A DNA stretch of 64,000 nucleotides from assembly GCA_964485575.1 (NCBI GenBank), contig CAZAJO010000008.1, positions 921 to 64,920 of the forward strand, written 5' to 3'. The first letter of the stretch is position 1; each line of letters starts with the position of its first letter. The translations under genes and the position numbers were made by a program. Under the pieces are notes generated by a model. It saw only the letters and a program-made list of their open reading frames with translations. It was not told where the DNA came from and ran no database searches. Positions 12,001 through 53,368 of this stretch are shown one piece after another. This DNA comes from an uncultured Gammaproteobacteria bacterium. GTDB taxonomy: Bacteria > Patescibacteriota > Microgenomatia > Levybacterales > GWA1-39-11.

Positions 12001-15000
12001 TTATTGAAGCGCCACCTGTTGTGACGGTTAAGGCTCCACCGATGGTTTGGCCAACAGTGAAGTTGTTGTTTTGTCCTTTGTACGCAACGTTTGTGAGAGT
12101 TCCGGTTGTGTTGATGTTTGTTCCGTTGAGTTGGAATCCACTAACAGCATTTATTGTGCCACTTATTGCAAGATTTCCAACGGTACCAGCGTCGGTAAGC
12201 GCAAGAAGGGTATTTGGTGACCCTTCTGCATCCCTGATCCTCAACACTCCATTATTTCCTGCGGTTGCAAGCGTAATATCAGGAGCACTGTTAGACAGAG
12301 TGAGTGGGGCAGCCGAGGAGAAGGTGTTGGTATTAGTAAATACGTTTGCTTGGTCTAGATAGGCAACATTTGATAGTGTTCCACCCACATTTATACTTGT
12401 TCCGTTGAGCTGGAATGCTGTCAATGCGTTGATTGTATCTCCCTGAATAGTTCCCGACGCAGTGATATTTGTTGCTCCTGTTATTGCACCGGTGTTTGTG
12501 ATTCCACCATTGTTGTTGTTGATTCCACCTGTTATTGAAGCGCCCCCCGCACTAACAGTAAGGGCACCTGCTGAGGTTATAGTTCCAGTTCCAGTTGTCG
12601 CGATGTTACCTGATGTTGATATAGTACCTAGCTCAGAAATTGTTAACGCAGAGACACTTGCAGACTGTACCTCAAAAACAATTCCACCCGATCCAACATT
12701 TGAGTCATTGATCACAAAAGCGTTTGCGCTTCCTGCATTTGTAAGTCTTAACTGAGTCGTAAGACCGGAATCAAGAGTGAAGTCGATGTTCTTTCCTGCA
12801 GTTGTAAGGATCGTATTTCCACCGTTATATGCTGATTGTAAGGTTACTCCAAATGCTGTAGGGTCACATTGTGAAAGTTCATTCGTTGCATTTTGACAAA
12901 GGACGGTAAAGCCTTGAACACCTGCAAGTATTGGAATTCCAACTGTATCGTTAAGTACAATCTTACCTGTACCATTTGCTAGCAGTGTAAGATCCTGATT
13001 TGATACTGTTGTTATATCTGTTGAAACTCCACTAAATGTAAGTGTACCTGTGGTGGTGATAGCCCCAGAAGCTATTGTTCCAATGTTGACAAGATTTCCT
13101 GATGCGTCAACCCTTTGCGTTCCATTCGTCTGTATCGAAGTTACTGCATTTAGTATATCCCCCTGGCTAGTGCCAGATGCTGTTATGTTTGTTGCTCCTG
13201 TAATTGAACCAGTGTTTGTTATACCACCTGTGTTATTGTTGATTCCACCGTTGATAGATGCCCCTCCAGCTGTAACAAATAGTCCATTAGCTGAAGTTAT
13301 CGTTCCTGAACCGATTGTCTGGATGCTATTTGAAGATGAAATGTAACCACTCGTTGAGGCATTTCCGCTTTCATCAATGGTAAGTCTTCTATTTCCACCA
13401 GACTGGATTTCAAGAGCTACTTGGTTTGGAGCGGCATTATTATCATTGATAATAAATGCCGATGCTGTTCCTTCGTTTGTTAAAGTAAGTGAGGTTGCAG
13501 CATTGAGACCGGAAGCAAGAGTAAAGTCGATGTTTCTACCCGAGTTTGTAAGAATTGTATTTCCGTTGTCATAGGATGATTGCAAGGTGCCTGCTGATGA
13601 GCCAACGTCGCAGAGAACTACTTCATCATCTCCATTAGTACAAAGAGGACTTCCAACAACAGTAACTAAGTTCTCTATGGTTACCGTACTGTTTGCTGCA
13701 AGTGTAGTGAATTTTCCTGATGAGCGCGTAGTGTTTCCGATTGGTGTATTGTCTATAGATCCTCCCGTTATAACAGCGTTACTTGAAGAGAGATTGTTTG
13801 CAGTAACTGCACCAACGAGATTTACCGTATCTGTTCCGGATCCGATATTAATAAAGTCTGGACTCGTGTTGTCTGTTCCGATATTGACGGTGTTACCGGT
13901 CGACAACGTTCCAATATTGATTGAGCCATTGGCTGATGCTCCGGCTCCTGCATTAATTGTGACTGATCCACCGGTTGATCCTCCGGCAGTAGATGTCCCA
14001 GCAACTAGTCTGAGATTTCCACCCGTAGCATCAACAGTAGAGCTTGCCGGATTGATAGTGATATCAGTTCCACCAACGAGGGTAGTAATGTCTGATGTGT
14101 TGTCTCCGGCAAGATATATAACTCCTGCCTCAGACACCTTAAGGGTTGATGCGCCATTTGACTGAAGATCAAAGAATGTACCGCCTCCCCCAGCTGATGT
14201 GTCATTGAGAATGAATGCACTTGCAGTACTTTGATTTTCCAAAGTGAAAGATGTTGGAAGATTAAGACCCGGAGCCAATGTGAATGCAATATTTCGTCCG
14301 TCATTTGTAAGGATTGTATTTCCATTATTGTATGAGGACTGAAGGGTTCCGGTTCCTGATCCTATTGAACATTTGATTATGTTATCGAATGAATCTATAC
14401 ATAGCGCAGTTCCTGAGCTTGTCGTCAAATTTTCGATAAGGACAGTGCTATTGGCAGCAAGTGTTGTGAATGCACCAGAAGAGCGGACGGTAGCACCAAC
14501 GCTCGTTCCATTTATAGTTCCTCCAGTAACAGTCACTCCGCTTGAGTTGAAGTTGTTAGCTGTAACTGACCCGACAAGGTTTATGGTGTCTAACAAAGAC
14601 CCTATATTGACAATATCGGCCAAGGTATCATTTGTTGCTATATTTATGACATTTCCCCCGGTTCCGGTTCCTATATAGATAGTCTTTGCACTATTACCAA
14701 TACCTAGATTAATGTCTCCTGTCGTTCCTGTATCAAGAGTTAGGGAATTGGAACCTGTAGCAGATATCGTTCCGACTCCAGCAAAAGTTAGATCGGTTGC
14801 ACTAACGCCAATTGTGTCAAGACTAATGACGCCCGTTAATGCTCCAAGCGTTGTGACATTTAATCCTCCGTTTGATGTGACCGCAAAAGTACCGGTAGCA
14901 TTGCCAATTGCTACATTTCCTGTTCCGGTTGTTGCGATGTTTACATCGGATGCACCTGAAGTTCCAAGATTTGTCGTACCTGTTGATGAAAGAGTTGTAA

Positions 15001-18000
15001 AGGCTCCCGTTGATGGGGTTGTTGCACCAATTGCAGTACTATTTATACCTGTTGCGGTTGCTGTGAAGTTGCCTGAAGTGATCAGTAAATTGTTGACTCC
15101 GGCATTGATAGATGATGCAGACAAACCTGAAAGACTGAGTACCCCGGAAGTTGCGGTAAGATTGATTGCCCCGGTCGTCAGGGTCAACCCATTTGATGCT
15201 GTCAAAAGACCAGCAGATGTTATAGTACCGGTTCCGGTTGTTGCTATATTTCCACTTGTTGTAAGATTTCCAAGCTCATTTATGGTCAAAGTTGCAGATC
15301 CGGAGGACTGAATCTCAAGAGCAGTATTTGTATTCTCGTTATTGTCGTTGATGATAAATGCAGAAGCTGTCCCTTGGTTTGTGAGAGTCAATGAGGTCGT
15401 CTGATCTTGACCCAATGTAAAGTCAATACTTCTTCCAGGAGTCGTTGTTATAGAGTTCCCAGTGTTGTAAGCAGCCTGCAGTCCAAATGGTGCACCGTTA
15501 CAGTACGCAAGGTTGTTACTTACGTCCAAACAAAGGGTGTTCCCATTCTGAGTCTGTAGACCATTGATCTGGATTCTCTCATTAGATGTTGTATTGAACA
15601 CTACGTTGTTACCGGTTGATGGTGTAAATACAGCAGATCCTGAAGCATCAAATGAATTTCCATTTGTGATAATCACATTTCCGTTGAAAGTAGAGATCCC
15701 AGCAACATCTAGAGTACTTCCAAGAGTAGTAGCTCCAGTCCCAACGCTAAAGGTATTGCTACCGGTGACCGTTGTATTCCCGTTCAACGAAACGTTACCG
15801 GTACCCGTGGAGAACGTGTATGCTCCAACTTGGGTAATATTATTATTGAAAGTTCCAACTCCATTGACAGTCAATGCACCTCCAAGAGTCGTAAGACCGG
15901 TTCCTACGGTAAATGTATTTGCTCCCGTTACTGATGTATTTCCATTCAGAAGAGTCAGTGCATTAATGTTGAGGTTCCCAATCCCATTTAATGGGCTTAG
16001 TGTGATTTCACCTGTTGTGTCACCACCGATGGTGAGTGCACTAAGCTCTGTGGTCTGAATAGAACGTGGTGCTCCTGCAAGTGTCAAATTACCAGAGATA
16101 GATGCATTACTGGTCGTCGTAAGCAAAGTGAAATTACCGGTTGAAGGAGTAGTTACTCCAATTGCAGTACCGTTGATACCCGTTGCGGTAGTATTGAAAT
16201 TATTTGATGTGAAAGTCAAATTGTTTCCTCCGGTGTTGATACTTGATGCAGAAAGCCCAGAAAGATTTAATGTTCCCGAAGTTGCGGTTAGATTGAGTGC
16301 TCCTGTTGTTAATGTCAGTCCGTTTGATGCTGTCAAAAGACCTGCAGAGGTTATTGTTCCAGTGCCGGTTGTAGAAATATTGCCACTAGTTGTTAGATTT
16401 CCAAGCTCATTGATAGTGAGTGTAGCAGATCCCGAGGACTGGATCTCAAGGGACGTATTGGTATTTGCATTGTTATCGTTAATGATAAATGCACTAGCTG
16501 TACCAAGGTTTGTTAGTGTGAGTGAAGTTGTCTGATCCTGACCCAATGTGAATGCCAAATTTCGTCCAGGAGTTGTCGTTATCGTATTTCCTGTATTATA
16601 TGCAGCTTGAAGTCCGAAAGGTGCTCCGTTACAGTACGCAAGGTTGTTACTTACGTCAAGACATAGAGTATTACCATTCTGAGTCTGTAGACCATTTATC
16701 TGTATCCTCTCAGTACCAGTAGTATTGAATACTACATTGTTCCCAGACGAAGGAGCAAAAACAGCAGCGCCTGAAGCGTTGAATGAATTACCTGTTGTTA
16801 TAAATACGTTACTGTTAAATGTTGCAGTGCCCGCAACATCAAGAGTGCTTCCAAGAGTTGTAGCACCGGTTCCGACAGTAAAGGTATTGGATCCGGTAAC
16901 TGAAGTGTTTCCATTGAGTGAAACATTACCAGTTCCTGTTGAGAATGTGCCTGTCCCTGTTTGGGAAATGTTGTTGGTAAATGTGCCGACTCCATTAACT
17001 GTTAGTGCTCCCCCGAGTGTTGTAAGCCCGGTTCCAACAGTTAAAGTGTTCGTACCTGTAACTGATGTATTACCGTTTAGAGTGATTGCGCCAGTTCCAG
17101 TTGTGAATGTGCTAGCACCTACCTGGCTTATGTTGTCATTAAATGTGGATACACCTAAGACATTCAATGTACCGTTGAATGCTGAATTTCCATTGACCGT
17201 AAAGTTACCTGCACCTGAAAGAGGGGATACCACAATATTTCCTGTCGTATTTCCACCAATTGTAAGAGTGTTGTTCTCGGTTGTCTGGATCGAGCGGGGA
17301 GCACCGGCAAGAGTTAGATCTCCAGAGAATGATGCAGTACCAGTTGTTGTTAGATTTGTGAAATTACCCGTCGATGGAGTAGTAGCACCGATGGCAGTGT
17401 TGTTTATGCCAGTAGCAGTGACGGTAAAATTACCGGATCCGATGAGTAAATTATTTCCTCCAAACTGTAGTGATGAAGCAGATAGACCAGACAAATTGAG
17501 TGCTCCTGATGTACCGGTGATATTAACAGCACCAGTCGTTACGCTGAGTCCGTTTGACGCTGTCAATAGCGCATTAGATGTTATAGTGCCTGTTCCGGTA
17601 GTTGCTATATTTCCACTCGTTGTAAGATTTCCAAGCTCGTTTATAGACAAAGTTGCAGATCCCGAAGACTGGATTTCAAGAGATGTATTAGTATTGGCAT
17701 TATTGTCATTGATGATAAATGCTGAAGCAGTACCCAGATTAGTCAGGGTAAGAGATGTTGTCTGATCTTGACCCAATGTAAATGCAAGGTCACGACCCGG
17801 AGTTGTCGTTATCGTGTTTCCGGTGTTGTATGCTGCTTGAAGTCCAAATGGAGCACCGTTACAGTATGCAAGATTATTGCTTACATCCAAACAAAGGGTG
17901 TTCCCATTCTGAGTCTGTAACCCATTGATTTGAATTCTTTCATTTGAGGATGTATTAAATACGACATTATTGCCGGTAGAAGGTGTAAATACAGCTGATC

Positions 18001-21000
18001 CTGAAGCATTGAATGAGTTACCAGTTGTTACAAATACGTTGCCATTAAATGTTGCTGTACTAGCAACTGTAAGCGTACTGCCCAACGTTGTCGCACCAGT
18101 TCCGACTGAGAACGTATTGCTTCCTGTGACAGATGTATTTCCATTCAAAGAAACTGTTCCAGTCCCTGTTGAGAATGTACCGGTGCCAACTTGGCTAATA
18201 TTGTTGTTGAATGTTGCAGCCCCTTGTACACTCAAAAGGCCAGTGATGTCGGTGTTACCAGCAATCTGCACAAGTCCAGTCGTATTACCACCGATAGTCA
18301 GAGTGTTAAAGTCGGTCGTCTGAATTGAGCGTGGGGCACCTGCAAGAGTCAGATTCCCAGAGAATGAGGCATTCCCCGTAGTTGTGAGTGTAGTGAAATT
18401 ACCGGTGGAAGGGGTAGTGGCTCCTATTGCAGTATTGTTGATTCCGGTCGCAGTTGTATTGAAGTTTGATGAGGTGAATGTCAGAGCATTTGCACCTGAA
18501 TCAAATGTAGACGCACCAAGTCCAGTAAGAACAATTGCGCCTGAAGAACCAGTTATGTTTACAGCTCCAGCTGTGACTGTAAGGCCATTTGAAGCAGTTA
18601 ATAATCCGTTAGATGTTATTGTTCCCCCTGAGGTTGTGAGGATATTGTCAATAGTTGAAAGAGTTCCATTCTCACTTATTGTAAGCGTAGCCGAACCACT
18701 ACTTTGAATAGACAGTGCATTTTGGATAGAAGCATTGGTGTCATTGATAACAAATGCTGCACTTCCGGTTCCGGCATTGGTGAGCAGGAACTGACGTGAT
18801 GAAAGATCAGCAAGTGTAAAGTCAATATTCCCATGAAGATCGTTAGCAACTATGGTATTTCCTGAATTGTATGCCTGCTGTAGGGTAACATTAAGAGCGT
18901 TTGATGAACAAATAGAAAGCTCGTTTGCCCCATTTCGACAAACAACTGTCGCACCAACGGTTCCTGAAAGATTTGGAATCCTTGTTATAGTATTTAGTAC
19001 TATTTGTCCCGTTCCGTCAGGTGAAAGAGTAAGATCCTCATTTGAATTGGTTGTGATATCTGTTGCAGCACCTGAGAATATGAGCCCTGTAGATCCTATC
19101 GATTTATTTGAAAGAGTCTGGGTCTGATTAGCAAAAATGAATGTGTCATCTGCAGTGAGTGCTGGAATGGTGGCAAATCTTGACGCAGAGGGAGCAAGAG
19201 ATGTGATTGTCGTAGTATTAGTCGTTCCAAGTACTACCTGGTTTGTTGTGTTTGTGAGATTTAGAGACGCAAATGTTGGCGATGATGTCGCAGCGATACT
19301 TTGAGGTAATGAAAGAGAAATAGTACCAGACCCATTAGCCACGAGAACTTGATTTGAAGTACCCGTAATAGTATTCAAACTAAACCCTGACCCATTCCCT
19401 ATGAGAAGAGCTCCATTTGGAGCAGCAGAACTATCCACCCCGGTTCCACCTCTCAAAGGTGCGAGTTGTTGTTCTGAGGCAAGAACACCTGATGCGTTAT
19501 TGATGACAACTCCAGCTGTTGTAAACGGAGATATGGTGACAGATGTATTTGCCGTAACTGTTGTGAATGCTGCAGTTGACGGAGTAGTGGCTCCAATAGC
19601 AGTGCTATTGATTCCAGTTGCCGTGACGTTTAAGTTTGCTGCTCCGATGAGTAAATTATTTCCCCCAAACTGTAGAGATGAGGCAGATAGACCTGAAAGA
19701 CTGAGGGCTCCTGACGTGCCTGTGATATTGACTGCCCCTGTCGTTACGGTAAATCCATTTTGTGCTGTAAGAAGTCCTGCGGATGTTATGGCACCGGTAC
19801 CAGTAGTCAGGATATTTCCGCTAGTCGAAAGGTTACCAACAGACGTTAAGTTTCCGTTCTCAGAGATAGTAAGAGTTGCGCTACCACTTGATTGAGCTTG
19901 GAATACATCCTGAAGTGAGGCATTCGTGTCGTTTATGACAAAAGCAGCTGACCCAGTCCCTGCATTTGTAAGCAAAAATTGACGGGATGAAAGGTCAGCA
20001 AGAGTAATGTCGATATTACCTTCACCATCGGTTGCGCTAATAGTGTTTCCTGCTTCGTAAGCCAGTTGGAGCGAAATATTAGCAGCATTTGCAGGACACT
20101 CAGTTATCTCGTTTGTTATATCATCACGGCACAAGGTGGTCGCGCTTAGTCCAGCAGCTGGAAGATTAAGTAGTTTGGTTATATTTGAAAGGACGATCTG
20201 ACCCGTTCCATCAGGGGTAATAGTAAGGTCTTGATTCGATACGGTTGTGATATCGGTCCCTACACCATTAAAGGTTAGTGACCCTGTCGCTGTGATTGCT
20301 CCCGTTGACAAGCTATTGCTTGTGATCGAACCAGTTGTTATAAGATTTCCATTCTCAGAAATCGTGAGCGTTGCTGAACCGCTACTTTGAATAGATAGAG
20401 CATTTTGGATAGAGGCATTCGTGTCGTTTATGACAAATGCTGCTGACCCAGTACCGGCATTGGTAAGGAGGAATTGGCGAGATGAAAGGTCAGCAAGAGT
20501 GAAATCGATATTACCTTCACCATCGGTTGCGCTTATAGTGTTTCCTGCTTCGTATGCCAGTTGAAGCGAAATATTAGCAGCATTTGCCGGACACTCAGTG
20601 ATTTCATGAGAAGAATCATCACGGCAAAGTGTTGTTCCACTTACACCTGCTAATGGTAAGTTCTCTAATCGTGCAATATTTGAAAGTACGATTTGACCGG
20701 TTCCATTAGGTGTAAGCGTAAGATCTTCGTTACTGACCGTAATCAGGTCATTTGCAGCTCCAGAGAACACGAGTCCTGATGCTCCAATAGTTTTGTTAGT
20801 CAACGTTTGCGTTTGTGCCGCAAAAATAAAGGTGTCATCAAACGTGAGCGCTGGAAGTGTTGCAATACGTGGAGCACCCGGTGCTGGAGAATTTATTGTT
20901 GTAGTGTTTATTGTTCCTAATGACAATTGGTTTGTCGTTGCAGCAAGTCCGAGATTTCCTGCATATGAAAGTGTCGCAGCGTTGTCTCCCGCATTATTCA

Positions 21001-24000
21001 CGAATGCCAATTGGTATGTCGGTGCAGTTGTTAAGATCTGATTTTGGAGACTGAATGTCAGGTTATTTGACGAAGCCCCATTCCAGTAGGATCCTTGTAA
21101 TGACAATAGGTTTGAATTATTCAATGTTGCTCCACTCGTTGATGTGGCAAGTCTCAAAAGAGAGAGGGTATCAACTCCTGTCTGGTCGCCGACATTAAAA
21201 GCTGTCAGAGAAGTTATCGTCGTACCATCGTCTGTAAAATTAGAATCCCCGATATTTGATCCCGTTACGGTAAACTTGGCAAGTCTATTAAGAGTTCCAG
21301 CTCCTCCGACAACTCCACCGGCTCCAGCACAGTTTCCGACAGTAAGACAGACTGTCCCGTCATAGTCTGGAATACTTATTGTCCTCAAAGTTCCAGTTGT
21401 TATTTGACTAAGATCAAATAAGAATTGCTTTGTATTATCACCGTCATCCTGGAATGTGATTGAATTATCTGTAAGTAGTTTGTTTGTTAGAGTCTGGCTT
21501 TGGTTGGCAAAGATAAATGTGTCATTTGCACTAAGTCCTGGGATCGTAGCAATCCTTGAAGCTGCTGGCGCAACCGAGGAGATAGTCGTTGTGTTCCCAG
21601 TTCCCAAAACCAATTGATTTGTTGCCGCAAGGGAAGTAAGAACTCCTGCAGTCGTTAGATTCCCGTTCTCATTAATGGTAAGAGTAGCAGAGCCACTGCT
21701 TTGAATAGATAGGGCATTTTGTACGGACGCATTTGTATCATTTATGACAAATGCAGCACTTCCTGTACCTGCGTTTGTGAGCAGGAACTGTCGTGATGAA
21801 AGATCTGCAAGAGTTAGTGAAATATCACCAAACGAGTTAGAAGCGCTGATTGTGTTTCCAGCTTCGTACGCTAGCTGAAGGGAAATGTTTGCTGCATTTG
21901 CTGGACATTCGGTGACCTGATGAGATAAATCATCGCGGCAAAGTGTCGTTGCGGCAACACCTGCGACTGGCAGGTTCTCAAGACGCGTGATATTGGAAAG
22001 AACAATCTGGCCGGTTCCATTTGGAGTAATGGTAAAGTCCTCGTTGGCAAGCGTTGAGATGTCTGTTGCAGCACCAGAGAAAACAAGACCAGTCGTACCA
22101 ATGGTCTTATTGGTGAGGGTTTGAGTTTGCTGCGCGAAAATAAATGTATCATCGACGGTAAGTGCTGGTAATGTTGCAATTCGTGGGGCAGAAGGCGCAA
22201 CCGAACTTATTGTTGTCGTGTTTCCAGATCCCAAAACCAATTGATTGGTTGCCGCTTGCGCTGTCAAAGTTGTTGCTGAAAGGATAGACCCGGTTCCGGT
22301 GGTTAGGATATTTCCCGACGTTGATAGGAGCCCATTTTCATTGATGGTAAGAGTTGCGCTACCACTGCTTTGGATAACGAGTGAATTATTGACAGAACCG
22401 CTCGTATCATTGATTACAAAAGCACTTGCTGTTCCGACGTTTGTTAGAAGGAGGGAAGTCGAAAGACCTGATCCTAATGTAAAGTCGATATTCCTATTTG
22501 CTGTTGTAGTTATCGTATTTCCTGAATCATAAGCAAGCTGCAATGAGACGTTGCTAGCATTTGCCGGACATTGTGTAATCTCGTTACTGACGTTATCACG
22601 ACAAAGGGTAGTTGCGGCAACTCCGGCAGCAGGAAGACTACCAAGTCTTACTGTATTCGAAAGAACAATTTGCCCAATCCCTGAAGCAGACAAAGTCAGG
22701 TCTTCATTGCTTGCGGTCGTTATGTCTGTGGCAGCACCTGAAAAGATAAGACCTGTAGATCCGATTGTCTTGTTACTTAATGTCTGCGTTTCGTTTGCAA
22801 ATACAAAAGTGTCTGACGCATTTAAAGCAGGTATCGTTGCTGTCCTTGGGACTGACTGTGAGTTGGAGTTTATAACAAGCGTATTACCGGCAGCACCTAG
22901 CGTAAGCTGATTACTTGTGTTTGAAAGTGTTTGCGATGCGAATGTCGGTGACGAAGTAGCGGCAATATCTTGAGGCGTAGAAAGAACAATTGTTCCACTA
23001 CCGTTCACAACATTTACCTGATTTGATGTACCTGAAATGTAATTAAGACTAAGTCCGGTACCATTGCCTATTAAAATCTGCCCAGGCAAAGCTGCTGATG
23101 TATCAAGGCCTGTTCCTCCTCGAGCCGGATTGAGTTGAGCGATAGTTGAGAAAACTCCCGAAGAATTATTGATTACAACTCCATCTGTTATGAAGCTTGA
23201 AAGAGTAAAAGCACCATTTGCCGACAGGTTAGTAAAAGCACCCGTTGAAGGGGTAGTACTACCCACAGCAGTACTGTTGATTCCGGTAGCTGTTGTGTTG
23301 AGGTTTGCTGATGTAATGAGTAAGTTATTTACTCCAGTTGATATACTTGAACCAGATAGGCCTGACAAATTAAGCGTACCTGCAGTAGCGGTAAGGTTAA
23401 GAGTGCCGGTTGTTAATGTAAGACCGTTTGATGCAGTAAGTGTTCCGGCTGAAGTAATAGTACCTGCTCCGGTTGTTAAGATATTTCCACTCGTTGACAA
23501 AATACCGTTCTCGTTGATGGTAAGTGTCGTTGAACCACCTGATTGCACTTCCAATGCATTCTGGATAGCAGCATTTGTATCATTGATAACAAGTGCTGAA
23601 GAGGCGGTTCCTGCATTTGTTAGGGTTAATGCACGGGCACTATCAGATGCCAACGTAAAGTCTAAGTTGCCGATAGAATCTGAAACGCTTATCGTGTTTC
23701 CGGAATTGTAAGCAAGTTGCAGTGAAATGCCACCAGCGTTTGCTGGACATTGAGTTATCTCGTTGCTGACGTTATCGCGACAAAGAGTTGTAGCACTTAC
23801 CCCAGGCCCTGGAAGATTTAAAAGACGGGTAGTGTTGGAAAGAACGATTTGCCCTGTCCCATTTGGAGTAATGGTGAAGTCTTCATTGGCAAGCGTTGAA
23901 ACATCAGTCGCTGCTCCTGAAAAGGTAAGGCCGGTCGCACCGATAGTCTTGTTGGAAAGAGTCTGTGTTTCATTGGCAAAGACAAATGTGTCATCCGCAG

Positions 24001-26113
24001 AAAGTGCTGGTAGTGTCGCAATTCTGGCAGCTCCCGGAGCAGGAGAGGTAATAGTTGTCGTGTTACCGGTCCCCAAGACTATCTGGTTTGTAACAGCCTG
24101 AGCAGTCAATGTTGTTGCAGAGACAATTGTGCCGGCACCAGTCGTTAGGATATTGCCGGATGTTGATAAATTATCTCCAGCAGTTGTTGGGGCGATTGTA
24201 GAGGTTCCATTGTTGCGGGTGAAAAATCCGACAGTACCCGAAGTATTGGTTGTTGTTATATTTCCAGAACATACAAGATTGCCAGTTGCGTCATCAATTG
24301 TACATCCCGTTGTGCCTGATCCCCCTGCAAGAGAAACATCCCCATCAGACGCAATTAGGAGCGCTTGCGCTCCTGTAGTGGTGTTGTATATCGTGAATTG
24401 TGACGTATCCACATTCACGGAATAATCATCCTGACCCACATCACTATCCACGAAAAATACCGAAGGATCAGAATTGGCTATAGTGATATCTCCGCCTGCT
24501 GTAGTTGTACCGGTGAGATAAAGATTTCGATAACGCCTGAGCGCAGAACCGAGATCGTAGGTATCATCAGCACTTGGTCCGATACTTCCAGCAACCTCAA
24601 GCCTAAAAGGATTACCATCAGCATCGAGGTCATCTGGTGCAACACCAATACCGAGACGGCCATTCGGAATCGTGACGAGTCCCGCTCCAATCGTCGCAGT
24701 GTCTAGGGCAGAACCGATATTGATGATATCAGCGGCAGTGTTGTCCGTTGCAATATTTATGACGTTTCCAGCCGTACCTGTGCCGACATTGATGATTTTT
24801 GCATTGTTTCCGGTGCCAAGATTGACTGTGCCGGTCGTGCCACTGTCAAGCGTCAAAGAGCTAGCTCCAGCAGAGAGCACTGACCCTGCACCTGTAAAAC
24901 TAAGGATTGTACCGCCTAGGTTAAAGTTGTTAGCAACGCCTGTTACTGATGTCAAGGTAGAAGATAATTGGATGTTGGCTTCTCCTGATGGACTTTCTGT
25001 GACATCAAAATCTCCACCAAGAAAATCCAGAGCATTTATCACATTCGAGACGACTACATCATTCTCTTTGATAGTTGCAACAGCAAAAGATGTGATATTA
25101 GTCCAAGAAGGAATGCCTGATGGGTCAACTGTTAAAAACTGTCCAGTCGTTCCGATCGGCAGCCCTGCAAGAACGTCAGTGGAAGCTGCATAGATGATGT
25201 CACCGGTCGTGTATGTAGAAAGTCCAGTTCCACCTACACCAACACTTATAAGTCCCGTCTTTATTGCTTCTCCGGCTACCGATCCTCCAGACCCAATTGT
25301 TAAAGTATTTGCAATATCTGGATCAGTGAGACATGAAGAACAATGTCCACGTGCAACCAAAGTTTCGAGTGTCGTTATGTCGGAAATGGTGAGATCAGTT
25401 ATCTGTATGCCATCACCCGCAAGAAGCTCTATATCACCTGTCTGACCCTGGAGTGAAGTAACCCCACTGGCATCCACAGAAATCGTGGGGGACTGTGGAT
25501 CTCCACTCAAAGTCACATTGTCACCAGCGGTTAGACTGTAGACTACATTTGGAGCTGTGATATTCCCTTTGAAAAGACTCGTACCCTCAACGAGAAGATT
25601 TTTCTTTATCGTTAGGTTCTCACGAGCAACAACCGGCAGTCCAAAAATCACACTACCGGTTAGCTTCAATTTGCTTGTTTGGGTTCCAAGTACTTCCGGT
25701 GTTTCGGTTGCGACATCTGTAGATTTAATTATTTTTGGAGCTGAATTCTTTATTAGCTGTTGCCTTGCAAAAACACCAGTAACGAAAAGTGCTGAGGCTA
25801 AAACACCGAGAACCAGGGTTTTCTTTGTTGGTTTGAGGTATGCGAATTGAAAGAATAGCCTTGTAGCCTCAAAAAGGAGGCTCATACTGTTGATAAATGA
25901 CTGAAATGGGCTTATAGTTTTATCAGCTGATGGAACAGCATCCACCTTAGCTTTGCTAGCTTCTACGAGCTTGGTAAGATCATCTTGCCTGTACTGAAAT
26001 TCTCCTTTTTCGTTGGTAAATGGGGTAAGTGAGTGGCGGTCGCAGAGATACACAAGGGTTTCTACTGAAACACCAAGCTGACGAGCTGCCTGTTTTAACG
26101 TTAATAATTTCAT
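1..26113 (-). CDS. giant repetitive cell-surface protein (3' end cut by window edge; >8,700 codons here): N-terminal HTH_17/excisionase-like motif, one TM helix, then >8,500 aa of Thr/Gly/Asn/Ser/Ala-rich tandem modules
   Basis: ATG = revcomp of cat at 26111-26113. I hand-translated the minus strand at 26113-25680, 24690-24480, 22633-22553, 17110-17042, 13681-13622 and 3667-3437; every piece is open and in one frame (plus-strand triplets starting at positions = 2 mod 3). The ORF track lists no minus-strand ORF in that frame; the track omits ORFs with no in-window stop, as with ppa at 63492. The plus strand is cut into ~90 short ORFs with PVV/VPV-rich translations, as expected for antisense of ACC/GGT/AAC-rich coding DNA. 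N-terminus: MKLLTLKQAARQLGVSVETLVYLCDRHSLTPFTNEKGEFQYRQDDLTKL. TM: TLVLGVLASALFVTGVFA. Confidence 0.8.
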   Translation of the reverse strand, partial: MKLLTLKQAARQLGVSVETLVYLCDRHSLTPFTNEKGEFQYRQDDLTKLVEASKAKVDAVPSADKTISPFQSFINSMSLLFEATRLFFQFAYLKPTKKTLVLGVLASALFVTGVFARQQLIKNSAPKIIKSTDVATETPEVLGTQTSKLKLTGSVIFGLPVVARENLTIKKNLLVEGTSLFKGNITAPNVVYSLTAGDNVTLSGDPQSPTISVDASGVTSLQGQTGDIELLAGDGIQITDLTISDITTLETLVARGHCSSCLTDPDIANTLTIGSGGSVAGEAIKTGLISVGVGGTGLSTYTTGDIIYAASTDVLAGLPIGTTGQFLTVDPSGIPSWTNITSFAVATIKENDVVVSNVINALDFLGGDFDVTESPSGEANIQLSSTLTSVTGVANNFNLGGTILSFTGAGSVLSAGASSLTLDSGTTGTVNLGTGNNAKIINVGTGTAGNVINIATDNTAADIINIGSALDTATIGAGLVTIPNGRLGIGVAPDDLDADGNPFRLEVAGSIGPSADDTYDLGSALRRYRNLYLTGTTTAGGDITIANSDPSVFFVDSDVGQDDYSVNVDTSQFTIYNTTTGAQALLIASDGDVSLAGGSGTTGCTIDDATGNLVCSGNITTTNTSGTVGFFTRNNGTSTIAPTTAGDNLSTSGNILTTGAGTIVSATTLTAQAVTNQIVLGTGNTTTITSPAPGAARIATLPALSADDTFVFANETQTLSNKTIGATGLTFSGAATDVSTLANEDFTITPNGTGQIVLSNTTRLLNLPGPGVSATTLCRDNVSNEITQCPANAGGISLQLAYNSGNTISVSDSIGNLDFTLASDSARALTLTNAGTASSALVINDTNAAIQNALEVQSGGSTTLTINENGILSTSGNILTTGAGTITSAGTLTASNGLTLTTGTLNLTATAGTLNLSGLSGSSISTGVNNLLITSANLNTTATGINSTAVGSTTPSTGAFTNLSANGAFTLSSFITDGVVINNSSGVFSTIAQLNPARGGTGLDTSAALPGQILIGNGTGLSLNYISGTSNQVNVVNGSGTIVLSTPQDIAATSSPTFASQTLSNTSNQLTLGAAGNTLVINSNSQSVPRTATIPALNASDTFVFANETQTLSNKTIGSTGLIFSGAATDITTASNEDLTLSASGIGQIVLSNTVRLGSLPAAGVAATTLCRDNVSNEITQCPANASNVSLQLAYDSGNTITTTANRNIDFTLGSGLSTSLLLTNVGTASAFVINDTSGSVNNSLVIQSSGSATLTINENGLLSTSGNILTTGTGSILSATTLTAQAATNQLVLGSGNTTTISSVAPSAPRIATLPALTVDDTFIFAQQTQTLTNKTIGTTGLVFSGAATDISTLANEDFTITPNGTGQIVLSNITRLENLPVAGVAATTLCRDDLSHQVTECPANAANISLQLAYEAGNTISASNSFGDISLTLADLSSRQFLLTNAGTGSAAFVINDTNASVQNALSIQSSGSATLTINENGNLTTAGVLTSLAATNQLVLGTGNTTTISSVAPAASRIATIPGLSANDTFIFANQSQTLTNKLLTDNSITFQDDGDNTKQFLFDLSQITTGTLRTISIPDYDGTVCLTVGNCAGAGGVVGGAGTLNRLAKFTVTGSNIGDSNFTDDGTTITSLTAFNVGDQTGVDTLSLLRLATSTSGATLNNSNLLSLQGSYWNGASSNNLTFSLQNQILTTAPTYQLAFVNNAGDNAATLSYAGNLGLAATTNQLSLGTINTTTINSPAPGAPRIATLPALTFDDTFIFAAQTQTLTNKTIGASGLVFSGAANDLITVSNEDLTLTPNGTGQIVLSNIARLENLPLAGVSGTTLCRDDSSHEITECPANAANISLQLAYEAGNTISATDGEGNIDFTLADLSSRQFLLTNAGTGSAAFVINDTNASIQNALSIQSSGSATLTISENGNLITTGSITSNSLSTGAITATGSLTFNGVGTDITTVSNQDLTITPDGTGQIVLSNITKLLNLPAAGLSATTLCRDDITNEITECPANAANISLQLAYEAGNTISATDGEGNIDITLADLSSRQFLLTNAGTGSAAFVINDTNASLQDVFQAQSSGSATLTISENGNLTSVGNLSTSGNILTTGTGAITSAGLLTAQNGFTVTTGAVNITGTSGALSLSGLSASSLQFGGNNLLIGAANLNVTATGINSTAIGATTPSTAAFTTVTANTSVTISPFTTAGVVINNASGVLASEQQLAPLRGGTGVDSSAAPNGALLIGNGSGFSLNTITGTSNQVLVANGSGTISLSLPQSIAATSSPTFASLNLTNTTNQVVLGTTNTTTITSLAPSASRFATIPALTADDTFIFANQTQTLSNKSIGSTGLIFSGAATDITTNSNEDLTLSPDGTGQIVLNTITRIPNLSGTVGATVVCRNGANELSICSSNALNVTLQQAYNSGNTIVANDLHGNIDFTLADLSSRQFLLTNAGTGSAAFVINDTNASIQNALSIQSSGSATLTISENGTLSTIDNILTTSGGTITSNGLLTASNGLTVTAGAVNITGSSGAIVLTGLGASTFDSGANALTFTSSNFNTTATGINNTAIGATTPSTGNFTTLTTTGNASFSGNLTLAGAPRSIQTTDFNTLTIGGNTTGLVQIAGNTDITGLLSVQGAATFNNNISQVGTGTFSTGTGTVSLNGNTSVTGSNTFSVGTGATTLGSTLTVASTATFNGNVFVTTGNSFNASGSAVFTPSTGNNVVFNTSSNERIQINGLQTQNGNTLCLDVSNNLAYCNGAPFGLQAAYNTGNTITTTPGRDLAFTLGQDQTTSLTLTNLGTASAFIINDNNANTNTSLEIQSSGSATLSINELGNLTTSGNIATTGTGTITSNALLTASNGLSVTTGAVNITGTSGALNLSGLSASSLQFGGNNLLIGSGNFTVTATGINNTAIGATTPSTGNFTNLTTTGTASFSGDLTLAGAPRSIQTTENNTLTIGGNTTGNIVVSPLSGAGNFTVNGNSAFNGTLNVLGVSTFNDNISQVGASTFTTGTGAITLNGNTSVTGTNTLTVGTGLTTLGGALTVNGVGTFTNNISQTGTGTFSTGTGNVSLNGNTSVTGSNTFTVGTGATTLGSTLDVAGTATFNSNVFITTGNSFNASGAAVFAPSSGNNVVFNTTGTERIQINGLQTQNGNTLCLDVSNNLAYCNGAPFGLQAAYNTGNTITTTPGRNLAFTLGQDQTTSLTLTNLGTASAFIINDNNANTNTSLEIQSSGSATLTINELGNLTTSGNISTTGTGTITSAGLLTASNGLTLTTGALNLTATSGTLNLSGLSASSINTGGNNLTFTSNNFNTTATGINGTAIGVTTPSTGNFTLLTTTSNASISGNLTLAGAPRSIQTTELSALTIGGDTTGEITLSPLNGIGNLNINALTLLNGNTSVTGANTFTVGTGLTTLGGALTVNGVGTFNNNITQVGAYTFSTGTGNVSLNGNTTVTGSNTFSVGTGATTLGSTLDVAGISTFNGNVIITNGNSFDASGSAVFTPSTGNNVVFNTTSNERIQINGLQTQNGNTLCLDVSNNLAYCNGAPFGLQAAYNTGNSITTTPGRSIDFTLGQDQTTSLTLTNQGTASAFIINDNNENTNTALEIQSSGSATLTINELGNLTTSGNIATTGTGTITSAGLLTASNGLTLTTGAINLTATSGVLSLSGLSASSINAGVNNLLITSGNFTATATGINSTAIGATTPSTGAFTTLSSTGTTNLGTSGASDVNIATTGTGNVAIGNATGTFAVTSNGGLNVTTLGALTGVISLDTIGVSATDLTFAGVGTISATGSNSLTLDTGTTGDINLGIGNSAKTIYIGTGTGGNVINIATNDTLADIVNIGSLLDTINLVGSVTANNFNSSGVTVTGGTINGTSVGATVRSSGAFTTLAANSTVLIENLTTSSGTALCIDSFDNIIKCSIGSGTGTLQSSYNNGNTILTNDGRNIAFTLAPGLNLPTSFTLENQSTASAFILNDTSAGGGGTFFDLQSNGASTLKVSEAGVIYLAGDNTSDITTLVGGTDITINPASSTVDATGGNLRLVAGTSTAGGSTGGSVTINAGAGASANGSINIGTLSTGNTVNIGTDNTSPDFINIGSGTDTVNLVGAVTANNLSSSNAVITGGSIDNTPIGNTTRSSGKFTTLAANSTVTIENLVTVVGSPLCTNGDDEVVLCDVGSSAGTLQSSYDNGNTILTNSGRNIDFTLASGLNAATSLTLTNEGTASAFIINDNNAAPNQVALEIQSGGNRRLTIDESGNASTSGYISSSNSIQTIGSGTITSANGLFVTAGGASINGGINNNTGGITNTGSITGATNITASGTSQGDILNAVTSIQTNGTQRVDASGNLVNIGTIASGAITTTGTLTFSGVSTDITTVSNQDLTLLANGTGKIVLNDTVGIPILAGVQGFTVLCQNATNELSQCDPTAFGVTLQSAYNGGNTILTTAGKNIDFTLDSGLTTQLRLTNAGSANAFVINDSNVGSGGIVFEVQSASVSALTISELGTISTSGNIATTGTGTITSAGALTVSAGGASITGGINNNNGGITNTGAITGATNITASGTIQGDTINALTAFQLNGTSINVGGTLSNVAYLDQANVFTNTNTFSSAAPLTLSNSAPDITLATAGNNGVLRIRDAEGSPNTLLALTDAGTVGNLAISGTINAVSGFQLNGTNINTTGTLTNVAYKGQNNNFTVGQTIGGALTVTTGGASITGGINNNTGGITNTGAITGATNITASGTTQTDILNAITAIQLNGVNINTGGTLSNVAYLDTANTFTLGQTINTGGITVVAGGANISGGINNNNGGITNTGAIAGATTIAASGVVTLSGASPLTLSNTTPIITLGAGNAAGTLTIKDSNGTPNTLLTLVDNGTVATLTVGTINATSALQLNGANINTANTLTNVAYKNQSNTFTAGQIITTGGLAIQAGGLDVTGGINNNAGGITNAGAISGATSIDASGVVTLSNAAPLTLSDSAPVITLATAGTNGVLTIKDAEGAPNTLLTLTDTGTTGNLSVTGSINAGTGILLGGTNINTTGTLTNVAYKGQNNNFTVGQTIGGALTVTTGGASITGGINNNTGGITNTGAITGATNITASGTIQGDIINAITALQLNGTDINTAGILTNVAYKNQSNTFTAAQIISSGGLSVTGGINNNNGGITNTGAIGSATTIDASGLVTLSSSTPLALTATTSAITVAAAGSNGTLTIRDGEGSPNTLLTLTDTGTVGNLSVTGTINAVGGYLLNGTNINTTGTLTNVAYKGQNNNFTVGQTIGGALTVTTGGASITGGINNNAGGITSTGAISGVTDITASGVVTLSGASPLTLSNAAPVLTLATTGVDGVLTIADAQGSPNTLLTLTDNGTNATLAVANINATTGFLLNGTNINVGTTLSNVAYLDQANLFAIGQTINTGGITINAGGANITGGINNNTGGITNTGAITGATNITASGTIQGATINATSVFQLNGTSINTTGTLTNVAYKGQNNNFTTAQNIAGTVTITGAATDITTGSNEDLTLVANGSGVINLNDTIQIPTLASPDGSTALCRNAGDFLSACAPNSNGVTLQLAYDAGNTILTTSGRNIDFTLYDENTDSGTPTSFTLMNAGSANAFVINDVRTGSGGIAFEIQSASASALTITELGTITTSGNIATTGTGTITSAGALTVSAGGASITGGINNNTGGITNAGAISGATTIGASGLVTLSAASPLTFSNTNPIVTLGAGNANGVLTIRDSAGSPNTLLTLTDAGTVGNLSVTGTINAGTGYLLNGTNINTAGTLTNVAYLNQANIFTAGQTITTGGLAIQAGGADITGGINNNTGGITNTGAITGATNITASGTTQTDILNAITAIQLNGTNINTAGTLSNVAYKNQSNTFTAAQIISAGGLSVVGGINNNNGGIINTASISGATTIDASGVVTLSGANPLALTNGTPNISLATAGVDGVLTIKDAEGSPNTLLTLTDAGTVGNLSVTGTINAANGFLLGGTNINTTGTLSNVAYKGQDNNFTVGQTIGGALTVTTGGASITGGINNNTGGITNTGAISGATTIGASGLVTLSAGSPLTFSNTNPIVTLGAANANGTFTIKDSAGVPNTLLTLTDAGSVGNLSVTGSVNAGTTLQIGGVDINTAGTLTNVAYQNQSNTFTALQTITTGGLTISADGASITGGINNNTGGITNTGAITGATNITASGTIQGATINGTSVIQLNGVDINTAGTLTNVAYQNQANTFTALQTISSGGLTISAGGANITGGIDNNVGGITNTGAIAGATTIAASGTVTLSSGSPLTLSNTTPIITLGAGNAAGVLTIRDSNGAPNTLLTLTDNGTTATLAVANINATTAFLLNGTSINTTGTLSNVAYKGQDNNFTVGQTIGGALTVTTGGASITGGINNNAGGITNTGAITGATNITASGTIEGATLNATNNIQTNGVTRLDVIGNLTNINTISSGAITTSGVLTFNGVPTDITTGPNENLTLAPNGTGEILLNNYVQVATLSATTGLTTVCRNASNQLSTCAANASAVTLQQAYDAGNTILTTSGRNIDFTLDSGLSTQFTLTNAGSANAFVINDTNAGTGGVALDVQSAGVSKLSISELGNISTSGNITTTATGTITSAGALTVNSGGAYLKGGINNNSGGIINTGSITGITNLTASGTATLTGSSPLTLSNANPNIRLATAGTDGTLTISDAEGSPNTLLTLTDNGTVGTLSVGTVNASTGFTLGGTDINTTGTLTNVAYKGQNNNFTVGQTIGGLLTVTTGGITVSAGGASINGGINNNAGGITSTGAIAGATTIAASGTVTLSSAAPITLTNSAPDITLGAGDANGTLSIKDSAGSPNTLLTLVDNGTDATLTVGTVNALSALQINGANINTTGTLTNVAYKGQNNNFTVGQTIAGLLTVSSGGASITGGINNNTGGITNTGAITGATNITASGTIQGATLNATSVIQLAGTDINTAGTLTNVAYQNQANTFTALQTITTGGLTINAGGANITGGIANNAGGITGTGAIAGATTIDASGTVTLSSASPLTFSNTNPIVTLGAGNAAGVLTIRDSNGAPNTLLTLTDNGTTATLAVANINATTAFLLNGTSINTTGTLSNVAYKGQDNNFTVGQTIGGALTVTTGGASITGGINNNTGGITSAGAISGATTIDASGTVTLSSASPLTLSNNAPVLTLATAGNNGVFTIKDAEVSPNTLLTLTDNGTNGTLTVANVNATTALQFNGTNINTTGTLSNVAYKGQNNNFTVGQTIGGLLTVSAGGANITGGINNNAGGITNTGAVSGATNITASGTIQGGTLDATTSVQTSGTDRIDASGNLVNIGTISSGAITTTGTLTFDGVSTDITTGTNEDLTLTPNGTGQIVLSNLTQVPTLGTNGTIGLCRNALNQIATCNAATATLQTAYDNGNTITTTTGRNIAFTLAGGLGSPTSFTLTNAGTANAFILNDTAAGTGGIAINVKSNGTSTLTIDELGNLTTSGNIVTTGTGAITAAGLLSATNGASISAGLDNNLGGITNAGAITGATNITASGTIEGDIINAVSAFQLNGTSINTAGTLTNVAYKNQNNNFTVGQTIAGLLTVSTGGASITGGINNNTGGLTNAGAISGATTIAASGTVTLSGVSPLTLSNASPIVTLATQGTNGVLTIRDAELSPNNLLTLTDYGDGGSLSVSSISATTSLQLNGVDINTAGTLTNVAYRNQNNNFTVGQTIAGLLTVSSGGASITGGINNNTGGISNTGAITGATNITASGTIQGATVNATSVIQLNGTDINTAGTLTNVAYQNQQNTFSQNNIFSNANPVTLSDNAPIVTLATIGNNGVLTIKDAEGSPNTLLTLTDAGTVGNLSLSGTINAVSGFLLNGTNINTTGTLSNVAYKGQNNNFTVGQTIAGLLTVSSGGASITGGINNNTGGITNTGAIAGATNITASGTVTLSGASPLTLTNAAPTAILGTAGVDSTLTINDGDANTLLSLTDAGTVGNLSLTGSVNAVTGFLFNGTNINTTGTLTNVAYKGQNNNFTVGQTIGGALTVTTGGASITGGIDNNNGGVTNTGAITGATNITASGTTQTDILNAITAIQLNGANINTAGTLTNVAYLNQANTFTNTNTFSSATPVVLSNTNPVITLGAGNAAGTLTINDSNGSPNTLLTLVDNGTVGTLTVGTVNASSNVQTNGTTRIDASGNLTNIGTVSSGAITTTGTLTFNGVSTDITTGTNENLTIAPNGTGEIILSNLVQVPTLGTNGTSGLCRNASNQIASCNANVNNVTLQQAYEAGNTISATDNEGNIDFTLANLNSRQFTITNAGTGSAALVINDTNASIQNALQIQSSGSATLAINENGNLTTSGNIVTTGTGTITAANGFVATAGGANITGGINNNTGGITNTGAIAGATNITASGTVQTDVLNAITAIQLNGLNINTAGTLTNVAYLNQANTFTNTNTFSSATPIILSNTNPVVTVGAGDAAGTLTIKDSAGSPNTLLSLVDNGTVATLSVDTINALSQLQVNGANINTTGTLSNVAYKGQNNNFTTAQTIGGLLTVSTGGLTVSAGGASITGGFNNNNGGITNAGAVSGVTTLDASGTVTLSGISPLTLSNTTPTITLSTLGNNGTLTIKDAEGSPNTLLTLVDNGTTATLSASSINGVTDIQTNGVRRIDASGNLTNIGTVSSGAITTTGTLTFNGVSTDITTGTNENLTIAPNGSGQILLSNLTQVSTLGTNGNV
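100..13350 (-). repeat. family-A tandem coding modules inside the giant gene (~400 nt = ~133 aa each; higher-order ~2.2-kb near-identical copies)
   Basis: Antisense shadow ORFs recur at 393-420-nt spacing (2139/2559, 4467/4872, 5613/6006, 7758/8160, 11487/11952/12462) with near-identical translations. The copies at 4872-5225 and 7098-7445 are almost identical, 2226 nt apart. Hand-translating the minus strand at 3667-3437 gives ...LTNVAYKNQNNNFTVGQTIAGLLTVSTGGASITGGINNNTGGLTNAGAISGATTIAASGTVTLSG... Confidence 0.75.
15330..18420 (-). repeat. family-B modules inside the giant gene (~1.16-1.25 kb period) made of short NGNTSVTG-x-NTF-x-VGTG sub-repeats
   Basis: Shadow ORFs at 15564, 16725 and 17970 share the same long translation, 1161 and 1245 nt apart. 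Minus-strand hand translation at 17110-17042 gives TFTTGTGAITLNGNTSVTGTNTL. Confidence 0.7.
18800..24120 (-). repeat. family-C modules inside the giant gene (~1.21 kb period) carrying a Cys-pair motif TTLCRD(N/D)xSxEITxCPANA
   Basis: Shadow ORFs at 18852, 20793(partial), 22551 and 23763 are mutually similar. Minus-strand hand translation at 22633-22553 gives PAAGVAATTLCRDNVSNEITQCPANAS. Confidence 0.7.
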
Positions 26114-26600
26114 TGACGAGTTTTGACTATCGCGTATATATAAAACGGGTGTATATCTAATGTATCTATTTTCGATAAAACTAGTCAACGTATGTTAATG
26201 ATAGGTACTGTAACAAACTGTACTGTTTTTCATAAAAAAATATATAACGTGTAGAAGCGGTTAAAAAGCGAAAAAAAATGATGATGCATTATGTTATAGA
26301 AAGTAGTAGTCATCCTAAACCGTATCAAATCTTAAAAAACAGAATATATTTCACAAAAACTTTTCACGCACATTAATCTTATAGTAACTATTCAGCAAAT
26401 TTTAATATTTTTATTTTCTCAAAATTGCAGAAAAAAATATTTCATTTTTCGCAAAATTAAAATTGACTTTTCACAGAATTGCGATATTTGAAGCTAATTA
26501 TTTTACGGTATTATAAATTGCTTTGATATAACAGAATAAAATGCATTATTGAGTTTATTAGTAGTACATAATGTAATTTAGCTTGGATTCAAGGCCAAAT

Positions 26601-26883: not shown

Positions 26884-29287
<2,404 letters not shown>

Positions 29288-29290
29288 ATG

Positions 29291-34237: not shown

Positions 34238-34257
34238 TATATCTACTATAGCAATTT

Positions 34258-47019: not shown

Positions 47020-47022
47020 ATA

Positions 47023-47559: not shown

Positions 47560-47564
47560 AGAGG

Positions 47565-53355: not shown

Positions 53356-53368
53356 TCCTTAAGTATAC

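Follow-up and report, generated by a model that had tools for sequence, protein, structure and literature searches.

A stretch of 64,000 nucleotides (nt) from contig CAZAJO010000008.1 (assembly GCA_964485575.1), referred to here as the window, encodes on its minus strand one giant protein in which a domain of ~155 amino acids (aa), here named the node, recurs along the chain together with intervening stalks. The gene is real and under strong purifying selection, and the two repeat families that an earlier note on this DNA had described as B and C are identified by sequence comparison as sub-types of one node-plus-stalk unit within this one giant protein. The protein is probably an extracellular giant fibre of such units, anchored N-terminally (a helix-turn-helix (HTH) domain and one transmembrane (TM) helix) on the cell of a member of the Patescibacteria, or candidate phyla radiation (CPR), where it would serve contact with a host or a surface, possibly as a tail-fibre-like homotrimer.

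Results

The giant gene and its orthologue

The minus-strand frame at 2..26194, the only long frame there, runs through 8,731 codons without a stop. Its probable start is the ATG at 26113 (minus strand), which gives a visible protein of at least 8,704 codons (2..26113), and its C-terminus lies beyond the left edge of the window, where the frame is still open. From the ATP synthase operon through the giant gene, the window is co-linear with the contig of a related metagenome-assembled genome (MAG; loci L001 and L015) at 77-84% nt identity, and the giant protein is 83-92% identical to its syntenic orthologue. Across the family C region (aa 600-2549) the two are 93% identical in aa and 80% in nt, with 0.053 nonsynonymous (dN) and 1.34 synonymous (dS) substitutions per site and a dN/dS of 0.04; calculated separately for the parts of the chain, the ratio is 0.048 in nodes and 0.029 in stalks. 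That the gene is real follows from its conserved co-linear orthologue, the dN/dS of 0.04, and a frame that meets no stop over 26 kb. The plus-strand open reading frames (ORFs) of 150-346 aa in this interval all lie inside the giant minus-strand frame, and we infer that they are by-products of a codon usage rich in ACN, GGN and AAY.

The orthologous frame comprises at least 10,338 codons (a continuity computed from locus coordinates) and is also cut by the end of its contig. Past the point where the window ends, two more nodes of the orthologue are followed by further module types (L015 aa 4400-5850), including a repeated one of the form '..YTLP.DDG.NNYVL.T.G.G.L.WQS..G.GAGTIT.VG..', and another B-like stalk. 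Neither a Pfam match nor a stop codon was found in this part (aa 4400-5850), and because the L015 frame shows no stop, the full orthologous protein is longer than 10,338 aa.

The node domain

The earlier note had treated a pair of cysteines as a marker of family C and a short "punctuation" motif as the connector between modules. The alignment of the copies places these two motifs at the two ends of a single ~155-aa domain, because every one of the 17 C-x9/10-C pairs found in the gene is followed by a punctuation motif 90-100 aa downstream. What had been read as a short connector is the C-terminal end of the node, with the Cys hairpin as its N-terminal part, and the Cys pair does not set family C apart, as it is also present in all three B units and along the whole gene. 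The consensus starts with ..PNGTGxIVLxN....L......TLCRNxSNxxxxCxxNA...TLQxAYxxGNTIxTTxGRNIDFTL...... and ends with FTLTNAGTAxAFVINDTNA....ALxIQSSGSATLTIxExGNLTTSGNIxTTGTGTITSAGxLTA. In terms of layout, a hairpin closed by C-x9/10-C is followed by a short LQxAY helix and then by the elements GNTI..T..NI.FTL, LTNxG, AFVINDTN and IQSSGSATLTI.E.G.L.TSGNI.TTGTG. The residues that are invariant among the full copies include C30, C41, L50, Q51, Y54, G57 and N58.

A node profile built from 14 copies detected 16 full copies in the window at 85-218 bits (E-values from 2e-28 to 2e-69, far past chance), and there are one degenerate copy and one copy that is cut by the window edge and covers profile positions 1-24. 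The claim that distinct module types are joined by a common conserved element was borne out by these 16 full copies and by 130 more in 27 related loci. The connector is conserved in the alignment of the modules, and the Cys pair is kept in all 146 copies, with the spacing C-x9-C in 94 and C-x10-C in 52; among matching representatives from protein databases, 50 of 56 full node copies have the C-x9/10-C spacing. Nodes of families B and C are 42-57% identical to each other. Pairwise identities further separate two diverged copies (D1 and D2) and an A group (A1-A5) farther downstream.

The individual motifs that had first drawn attention to the repeats were all recovered. The antisense string PVPVV.IFP.VVRFPSS is present on the plus strand, with at most five substitutions, at 11 of the 12 sites listed for it (1104, 3693, 6318, 9174, 12585, 15228, 16359, 17589, 19794, 22290 and 23463), and at the remaining site, near 18.6 kb, the copy has diverged (SSGSATLTISENGTLSTIDNILTTS, aa 2504). 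TTLCRD...C occurs five times in family C, with a sixth, diverged occurrence, and family B contains five instances of NGN(T/S)(S/T)V(T/S)G. Node copies at ~21.6, 20.3, 14.1 and 13.3 kb and the degenerate copy at 24.1-24.4 kb had been missed. The features of the giant gene, all on the minus strand, are listed below from the N-terminus onward, with bit scores from the node profile.

2..26113, minus: giant gene; sole long frame, dN/dS 0.04 against the orthologue, whose frame is likewise open-ended
25940..26113, minus: HTH_17/MerR-like domain (aa 28-85), predicted cytoplasmic; sub-threshold here, above cut-off in homologues
25766..25822, minus: TM helix predicted from hydropathy (aa ~125-143), signal-anchor; same position in homologues
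25331..25342, minus: CxxC motif RGHCSSCLTD (aa 285-288) in the membrane-proximal base; 17/17 homologues
18548..24409, minus: family C region (aa 596-2549), comprising the degenerate node, C1-C6, five P, two S and one S' element
24056..24409, minus: degenerate node (aa 596-713); Cys 631/642, SGNILTTGAG; C-terminal part 17 bits
23390..23869, minus: node C1 (aa 776-935), 216 bits
22214..22687, minus: node C2 (aa 1170-1327), 210 bits
21557..22027, minus: node C3 (aa 1390-1546), 192 bits; C-terminal punctuation motif diverged
20231..20713, minus: node C4 (aa 1828-1988), 212 bits; holds the best DUF4251 stretch
19718..20218, minus: node C5 (aa 1993-2159), 218 bits; directly abuts C4; copy used for AlphaFold
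18548..19024, minus: node C6 (aa 2391-2549), 218 bits
15155..18547, minus: family B region (aa 2550-3680), three stalk-plus-node units
18074-18235 and 15713-16036, minus: single or partial 54-aa sub-repeats with the same NGNTSVTG-type motif
17513..17980, minus: node B1 (aa 2739-2894), 195 bits; 90-92% identical to B2 and B3
16844..17167, minus: two tandem 54-aa sub-repeats in B stalk 2 (aa 3010-3117), NGNTSVTG.NT..VGTG.TTLG; 37-47 of 54 residues identical between full copies
16286..16750, minus: node B2 (aa 3149-3303), 200 bits
15155..15619, minus: node B3 (aa 3526-3680), 199 bits
14051..14452, minus: diverged node D1 (aa 3915-4048), outside families B and C, 85 bits
13226..13693, minus: diverged node D2 (aa 4168-4323), 127 bits
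12509..12979, minus: node A1 (aa 4406-4562), 207 bits
9095..9583, minus: node A2 (aa 5538-5700), 200 bits
6242..6715, minus: node A3 (aa 6494-6651), 218 bits
3620..4087, minus: node A4 (aa 7370-7525), 192 bits
1025..1501, minus: node A5 (aa 8232-8390), 216 bits
8..76, minus: start of an edge-cut node (aa 8707-8729), profile positions 1-24; the orthologue has a full node there (L015 aa 3809-3966)

Anatomy and evolution of families B and C

Family C has six nodes that are 53-77% identical, and its parts follow one another in the order degenerate node, P, C1, S, P, C2, P, C3, S', P, C4, C5, S, P, C6. Here P is a 62-aa pre-node element present in five copies (66-79% identical), S is a stalk of ~170 aa whose two copies are 69% identical with the adjoining P included, and S' is a distinct stalk of 219 aa with its own C-x5-C pair (aa 1616/1622, at about 21327-21349 of the window). 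The three nodes of family B are 90-92% identical, and the B stalks of 189, 254 and 222 aa are 57-68% identical and differ chiefly in the number of copies of the 54-aa sub-repeat (one, two, and one and a half). With one or two copies in each 189-254-aa stalk, family B cannot be said to be built of this short motif, as had been proposed. Over its initial ~100 aa, each B stalk is similar (30-37% identity) to the beginning of the C-type S stalk. A period of ~1.2 kb had been assigned to both families; it holds for B, where node starts are 1230 and 1131 nt apart, but in C it fits only three of the five intervals (1182, 660, 1314, 495 and 1194 nt).

At the DNA level, the repeats are 60-80% identical, and Tandem Repeats Finder returned nothing on the DNA because the repeats are too diverged and too long. 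The B nodes are 76-80% identical as DNA, with a pairwise dN of about 0.06 and a dS of 1.3-3.1, which is saturated, and a recent origin of the B triplication was rejected on the ground of this saturation. We read the B nodes as probable old duplicates, each held by purifying selection, or else their divergence could reflect selection against DNA identity between repeats. Two B units are present in the orthologue versus three in the window, and the positions of C1-C6 are identical in both.

N-terminus, membrane topology and cysteines

At the N-terminus, the window protein matches HTH_17 with 20.9 bits (cut-off 27) and MerR_1 with 16.3 bits (cut-off 21.6), and the sole PHROG match of the giant protein is likewise a MerR-like one at the N-terminus. 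Among more distant relatives, homologue P0017 passes the cut-offs for MerR (43.4 bits), HTH_17 (30.8 bits) and MerR_1 (28.1 bits), and homologue P0156 passes that for MerR_1. The predicted TM helix is the only 19-aa window with a mean Kyte-Doolittle hydropathy above 1.7 in 8,731 aa, and the order of HTH domain, linker, TM helix and the motif VLGxQTSKLKLxG is conserved in 16 homologous giant ORFs (loci L001, L003, L005-L008, L010, L012-L014, L016-L018 and L021-L023). The residues after ~143, at least 8,560 of them, are predicted to lie outside the membrane. It is unusual for a cytoplasmic domain of DNA-binding type to be tethered to an extracellular fibre that exceeds 8,500 aa.

About 150 aa past the TM helix, the CxxC motif in the form RG.C..C[IL]TD is kept in 17 of 17 homologues. 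All 38 Cys past the TM helix fall into 19 local pairs, compared with a random expectation of 1.9 pairs and a maximum of 10 in 20,000 trials. The giant protein is rich in T (18%), G (13%), N (11.5%) and A (10%), with ~6% charged residues.

Curated families and structure prediction

Matches to AsmA, Cu_amine_oxidN1, AnkUBD, FtsX, CasE and DUF4251 in the library scans were sub-threshold or spurious. DUF4251 (PF14059) is the only recurrent curated signal: it reaches 41.5 bits when summed over two stretches of the 4,371-aa N-terminal half and stays under the 27-bit cut-off on single nodes (17 bits for member 1; best copy E = 1.4e-4). Eight of the 16 node copies match it at E < 1, with node residues ~47-125 aligned to profile positions 49-125. 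DUF4251 is itself uncharacterised, and it shows no link to the Cys hairpin of the node. Searches of PDB sequences with the node profile and with aa 166-2549 gave no matches; no TPS, haemagglutinin-repeat, autotransporter or pertactin-type domains were found at E <= 0.1 in Pfam and NCBIfam, and no PKD, fibronectin, integrin, WD40 or DUF11 domains were detected with the same two libraries.

AlphaFold run on the 16 window copies alone gave a predicted local distance difference test score (pLDDT) of 63, too poor for use, and the node was modelled from a 44-row alignment of window copies and database matches, with a pLDDT of 79.7 and a predicted template modelling score of 0.56. In this model, hairpin strands at residues 29-31 and 38-40 have C30 and C41 at their base, and a helix at 50-55 corresponds to LQxAY. 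Residues 60-167 have a pLDDT of 72-89 and no secondary structure according to DSSP, and they are extended without a compact fold. A disulfide at the node Cys pair is well supported, albeit indirectly, because all 38 Cys are locally paired and the model sets both Cys at the base of the hairpin. The longest PDB alignment of the node model is to a phage hyaluronidase triple-beta-helix (E = 5.8), and the top BFVD matches include several proteins named tail fibres (best E = 0.17, non-significant); such matches of a model may serve as leads and not as evidence.

Distribution among relatives

With one copy as query, word-based searches of 5.8 billion proteins returned only five short fragments; the alignment as query raised this to 17. 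An exhaustive search with the node profile in 1.84 billion cluster representatives yielded 168 proteins at E <= 1e-3, including 28 at E <= 1e-30, and most of the 168 are multi-copy proteins of 1,000-5,300 aa. A scan of one genome per species revealed 29 loci, all with giant frames that are nearly all open-ended, and several paralogous giants with differing node spacing can occur in one genome. Where the titles of these loci are informative, they name Levyibacteriota, Amesbacteria, Kerfeldbacteria, Saccharimonadales and "Patescibacteria group"; a single locus bears the label Sulfotelmatobacter, and many are titled "uncultured Gammaproteobacteria", a label that we judge doubtful. No match to one node and one C stalk was found by tblastn in 50,697 phage records, and 2.9 million viral contigs (IMG/VR) contained a single marginal, partial match of 11.8 bits that is without the Cys hairpin.

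Genomic neighbourhood

An F-type ATP synthase operon (b, delta, alpha, gamma, beta) lies directly upstream of the giant gene on the same strand (26884-32167, minus), and similarity to the ATP synthase region was also found in loci L001, L005, L017 and L021. An ORF of 281 aa (33432-34277, minus) with an N-terminal signal-like segment, C-terminal hydrophobic helices and no Pfam family shares a domain of ~120 aa with the C-terminal part of a related giant protein in L029 (33% identity, pairwise E = 4e-11, GD.[LV]TSS..PGVA.K). A gene resembling beta-1,4-mannooligosaccharide phosphorylases of family GH130 (35660-36673, minus; 171 bits) is noteworthy in an organism with a seemingly reduced genome. 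A type IV pilus cluster (46363-60804) includes PilM (47565-48590) and a PilB-type ATPase (56782-58527), the latter followed by two ORFs (58530-59597 and 59602-60804); PilT and PilC are the usual neighbours after a PilB-type ATPase. A PMT/TMEM260-like protein O-mannosyltransferase is encoded at 53369-55393 and could glycosylate a Thr/Ser-rich surface protein. Scans of the window for Rfam families and tRNA genes gave no match.

Discussion

A surface fibre as the probable function

The chain would form a long fibre on the cell surface, in which the nodes act as regularly recurring, disulfide-stapled stations that may keep the fibre in register or rigid, or may present repeated binding loops. Such a fibre would serve contact with, or attachment to, a host cell or surface, and is probably adhesin-like. 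From rough rises per residue of known fibre types, its length is estimated at ~0.2 micrometre for a single-chain solenoid and at least 0.5 micrometre for a triple-stranded fibre. A confident, non-compact model of the monomer is what is expected for one chain of an intertwined oligomeric fibre. That dN/dS is very low in nodes and stalks alike points to a constraint on the shaft that is mainly structural, and a determinant of specificity may reside in the missing distal part.

A tail-fibre-like homotrimer is put forward by association as the most likely assembly state, because the node core and the base repeat co-occur with Peptidase_S74 (PF13884), the intramolecular chaperone of homotrimeric spikes and fibres of the endosialidase type. 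The membrane-proximal base repeat (..GTGTAGNVINIATDNTAADIINIGSALD..) is 63% identical to repeats of a Paceibacterota "tail fiber domain-containing protein" with Peptidase_S74. P0132 gives a weak match to the node profile (E = 2e-5 library-wide, 41.5 bits locally), with a node core of C-x14-C, LQIAY, GNTITT and NIEFTLAD, and it also carries Peptidase_S74 at 35.6 bits (cut-off 22). Peptidase_S74 is furthermore present in P0178, P0180 and P0186, all of which match the N-terminal region of the window protein.

The base region itself repeats GTGTAGN.INI.TDNTAAD.I.IGSALD (window 24700-24900, minus; aa ~430-500), and it is 61-67% identical in many short database proteins. Some of the database proteins that share the base repeat have PF17903 labels and others Peptidase_S74; the PF17903 (KH_KRR1) labels were taken as low-complexity artefacts, with no single stretch above threshold.

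Several observations weigh against the fibre as described. Scans of the whole protein with Pfam, NCBIfam and PHROGs gave no fibre family above threshold and no annotated adhesion domain, and fold searches of PDB and BFVD with the node model gave no significant structural match. Autocorrelation of hydrophobic residues and Gly produced weak peaks (lags 11-13, 27 and 39) and no clean beta-helix signature. In many adhesins the receptor-binding tips evolve fast, in contrast to the very low dN/dS of nodes and stalks here. Neither Peptidase_S74 nor another trimerisation domain was seen in the 8,704 aa, the C-terminus being outside the window, and no Pfam family, hence no Peptidase_S74, was detected in the further 1,451 aa of the orthologue or in the last 1,199 aa of a stop-ended ORF of L029. 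The terms "tail-fibre-like" and "trimeric" are thus drawn from an indirect association, and the names of related MAGs are the sole basis for placing the organism in the Patescibacteria, with uninformative or doubtful titles on the closest loci.

Alternative explanations

The protein could instead be a single-chain beta-solenoid adhesin similar to filamentous haemagglutinin or autotransporters, with the nodes as inserted knobs and without trimerisation, a reading that we hold to be unlikely though worth keeping in mind. In its favour are a chain that abounds in T, G and N and has alternating hydrophobic residues and short sub-repeats (54 aa), the NCBI name "beta strand repeat-containing protein" of one homologue, and the lack of a trimerisation domain in the window. 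A model of a single-chain solenoid is, however, expected to show stacked strands, whereas AlphaFold gives no intrachain beta-sheet past the hairpin despite the pLDDT of 72-89 at residues 60-167; TPS, haemagglutinin and autotransporter families are not matched, and the periodicity is weak. We consider it decidedly improbable that the protein is a structural component of the envelope or a sheath, either associated with a surface layer (S-layer) or forming a filament that connects cells, rather than a host adhesin. Such a role would agree with the extremely strong purifying selection along the chain (dN/dS 0.03-0.05), the conserved synteny beside the ATP synthase operon in several genomes, and the lack of a recognisable ligand-binding domain, but several giant paralogues with different node spacing are found per genome, and a membrane-anchored chain of more than 10,000 aa is unlike a typical lattice-forming S-layer protein.

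An origin as a phage or prophage tail-fibre gene is effectively excluded. It would have been suggested by the BFVD matches named tail fibres, non-significant as they are, and by a repeat shared with Peptidase_S74-bearing proteins, but the neighbours are housekeeping genes (ATP synthase, PBP1A, TyrRS and RecG) in a synteny that is kept in other genomes, the N-terminus has a TM anchor, the fibre has no PHROG match, and the searches of phage records and viral contigs remained blank apart from the marginal match described above. Just as effectively excluded, and with still less room for doubt, is a repeat-rich non-coding region or an assembly artefact: repeats are prone to mis-assembly and many overlapping ORFs are present on the plus strand, but 26 kb are free of stop codons, dN/dS is 0.04 in comparison with the co-linear orthologue, and repeats that are 60-80% identical as DNA make a collapse of the assembly unlikely. 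The anchored surface fibre remains the reading that we prefer and compare with known systems below.

Comparison with known systems

Phage tail fibres and tailspikes, as well as bacterial S74 fibre proteins, are, like the giant protein, long fibrous chains of low charge with a high content of T, G and N and with conserved stations at intervals. The giant protein differs from the phage fibres in its N-terminal TM helix, which anchors it in the cell membrane, in the housekeeping genes that surround its own gene and in a length roughly ten times theirs, and it has no significant match in sequence or structure to a phage protein and no S74 domain in the 8,704 aa available. The layout, and only the layout, of a cytoplasmic N-terminal HTH domain, a single TM helix and an extracytoplasmic part also recalls regulators of the ToxR/CadC type, but the HTH domain of the window protein is of the MerR/HTH_17 type instead of an OmpR-type winged helix, in place of a small sensor domain it has more than 8,500 aa of fibre on the outside, and its DNA binding is putative.

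Giant membrane proteins of 1,392-4,163 aa have been described in Vampirococcus lugosii, and a role in host recognition or attachment was proposed for them (PMC8080830). Like the window protein, they are very large, membrane-localised and presumably surface-exposed, and they belong to small-genome Patescibacteria; they carry WD40, PKD, integrin, fibronectin and DUF11 domains, whereas the window protein has none of these, is more than twice as long and contains the uncurated node. By its size, TM helix and CPR-named relatives, the window protein fits the class of giant CPR membrane proteins, which is a loose descriptive class and not a homology family. A role in host attachment has also been proposed for surface proteins that are essential in Saccharibacteria (PMC11665869). 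Giant genes of the Omnitrophota and others likewise encode extremely long, mostly extracellular and repetitive proteins with a proposed role in cell adhesion (bioRxiv 10.1101/2023.11.21.568195). In the Omnitrophota giants there are many TM helices and enzymatic domains, or dockerin and thrombospondin repeats; the window protein is built on another repeat unit, lacks enzymatic domains and has a single TM helix.

Implications

Giant repetitive surface proteins are already known as a kind, CPR bacteria included; new here is a repeat unit that is described by no curated library and is joined to a conserved MerR-type HTH domain and a single TM anchor. The conserved order of HTH domain, TM helix and fibre is unusual, and it allows a bolder proposal, to which we give little credence: the protein and its relatives might be cellular, membrane-tethered, tail-fibre-like trimers of at least half a micrometre, their register set by an undescribed disulfide-stapled node, in which the MerR-type HTH domain may link events at the fibre, for instance host contact or tension, to gene regulation or the binding of DNA. 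If true, episymbiotic Patescibacteria would possess a giant one-component system that senses contact.

Patescibacteria probably live attached to other cells, and to our knowledge the molecules that make this contact are largely unknown apart from type IV pili. With at least 26 kb (at least 31 kb in the orthologue), the giant gene would occupy a few per cent of a genome of 1.3-1.6 Mb, the size recorded for two related genomes, and very strong purifying selection acts on every copy of its repeat. The repeat is now correctly delimited as node plus stalk, its invariant residues are identified and its distribution is mapped, and the node is a concrete target for structure determination, for localisation and for the annotation of giant ORFs that are now labelled hypothetical.

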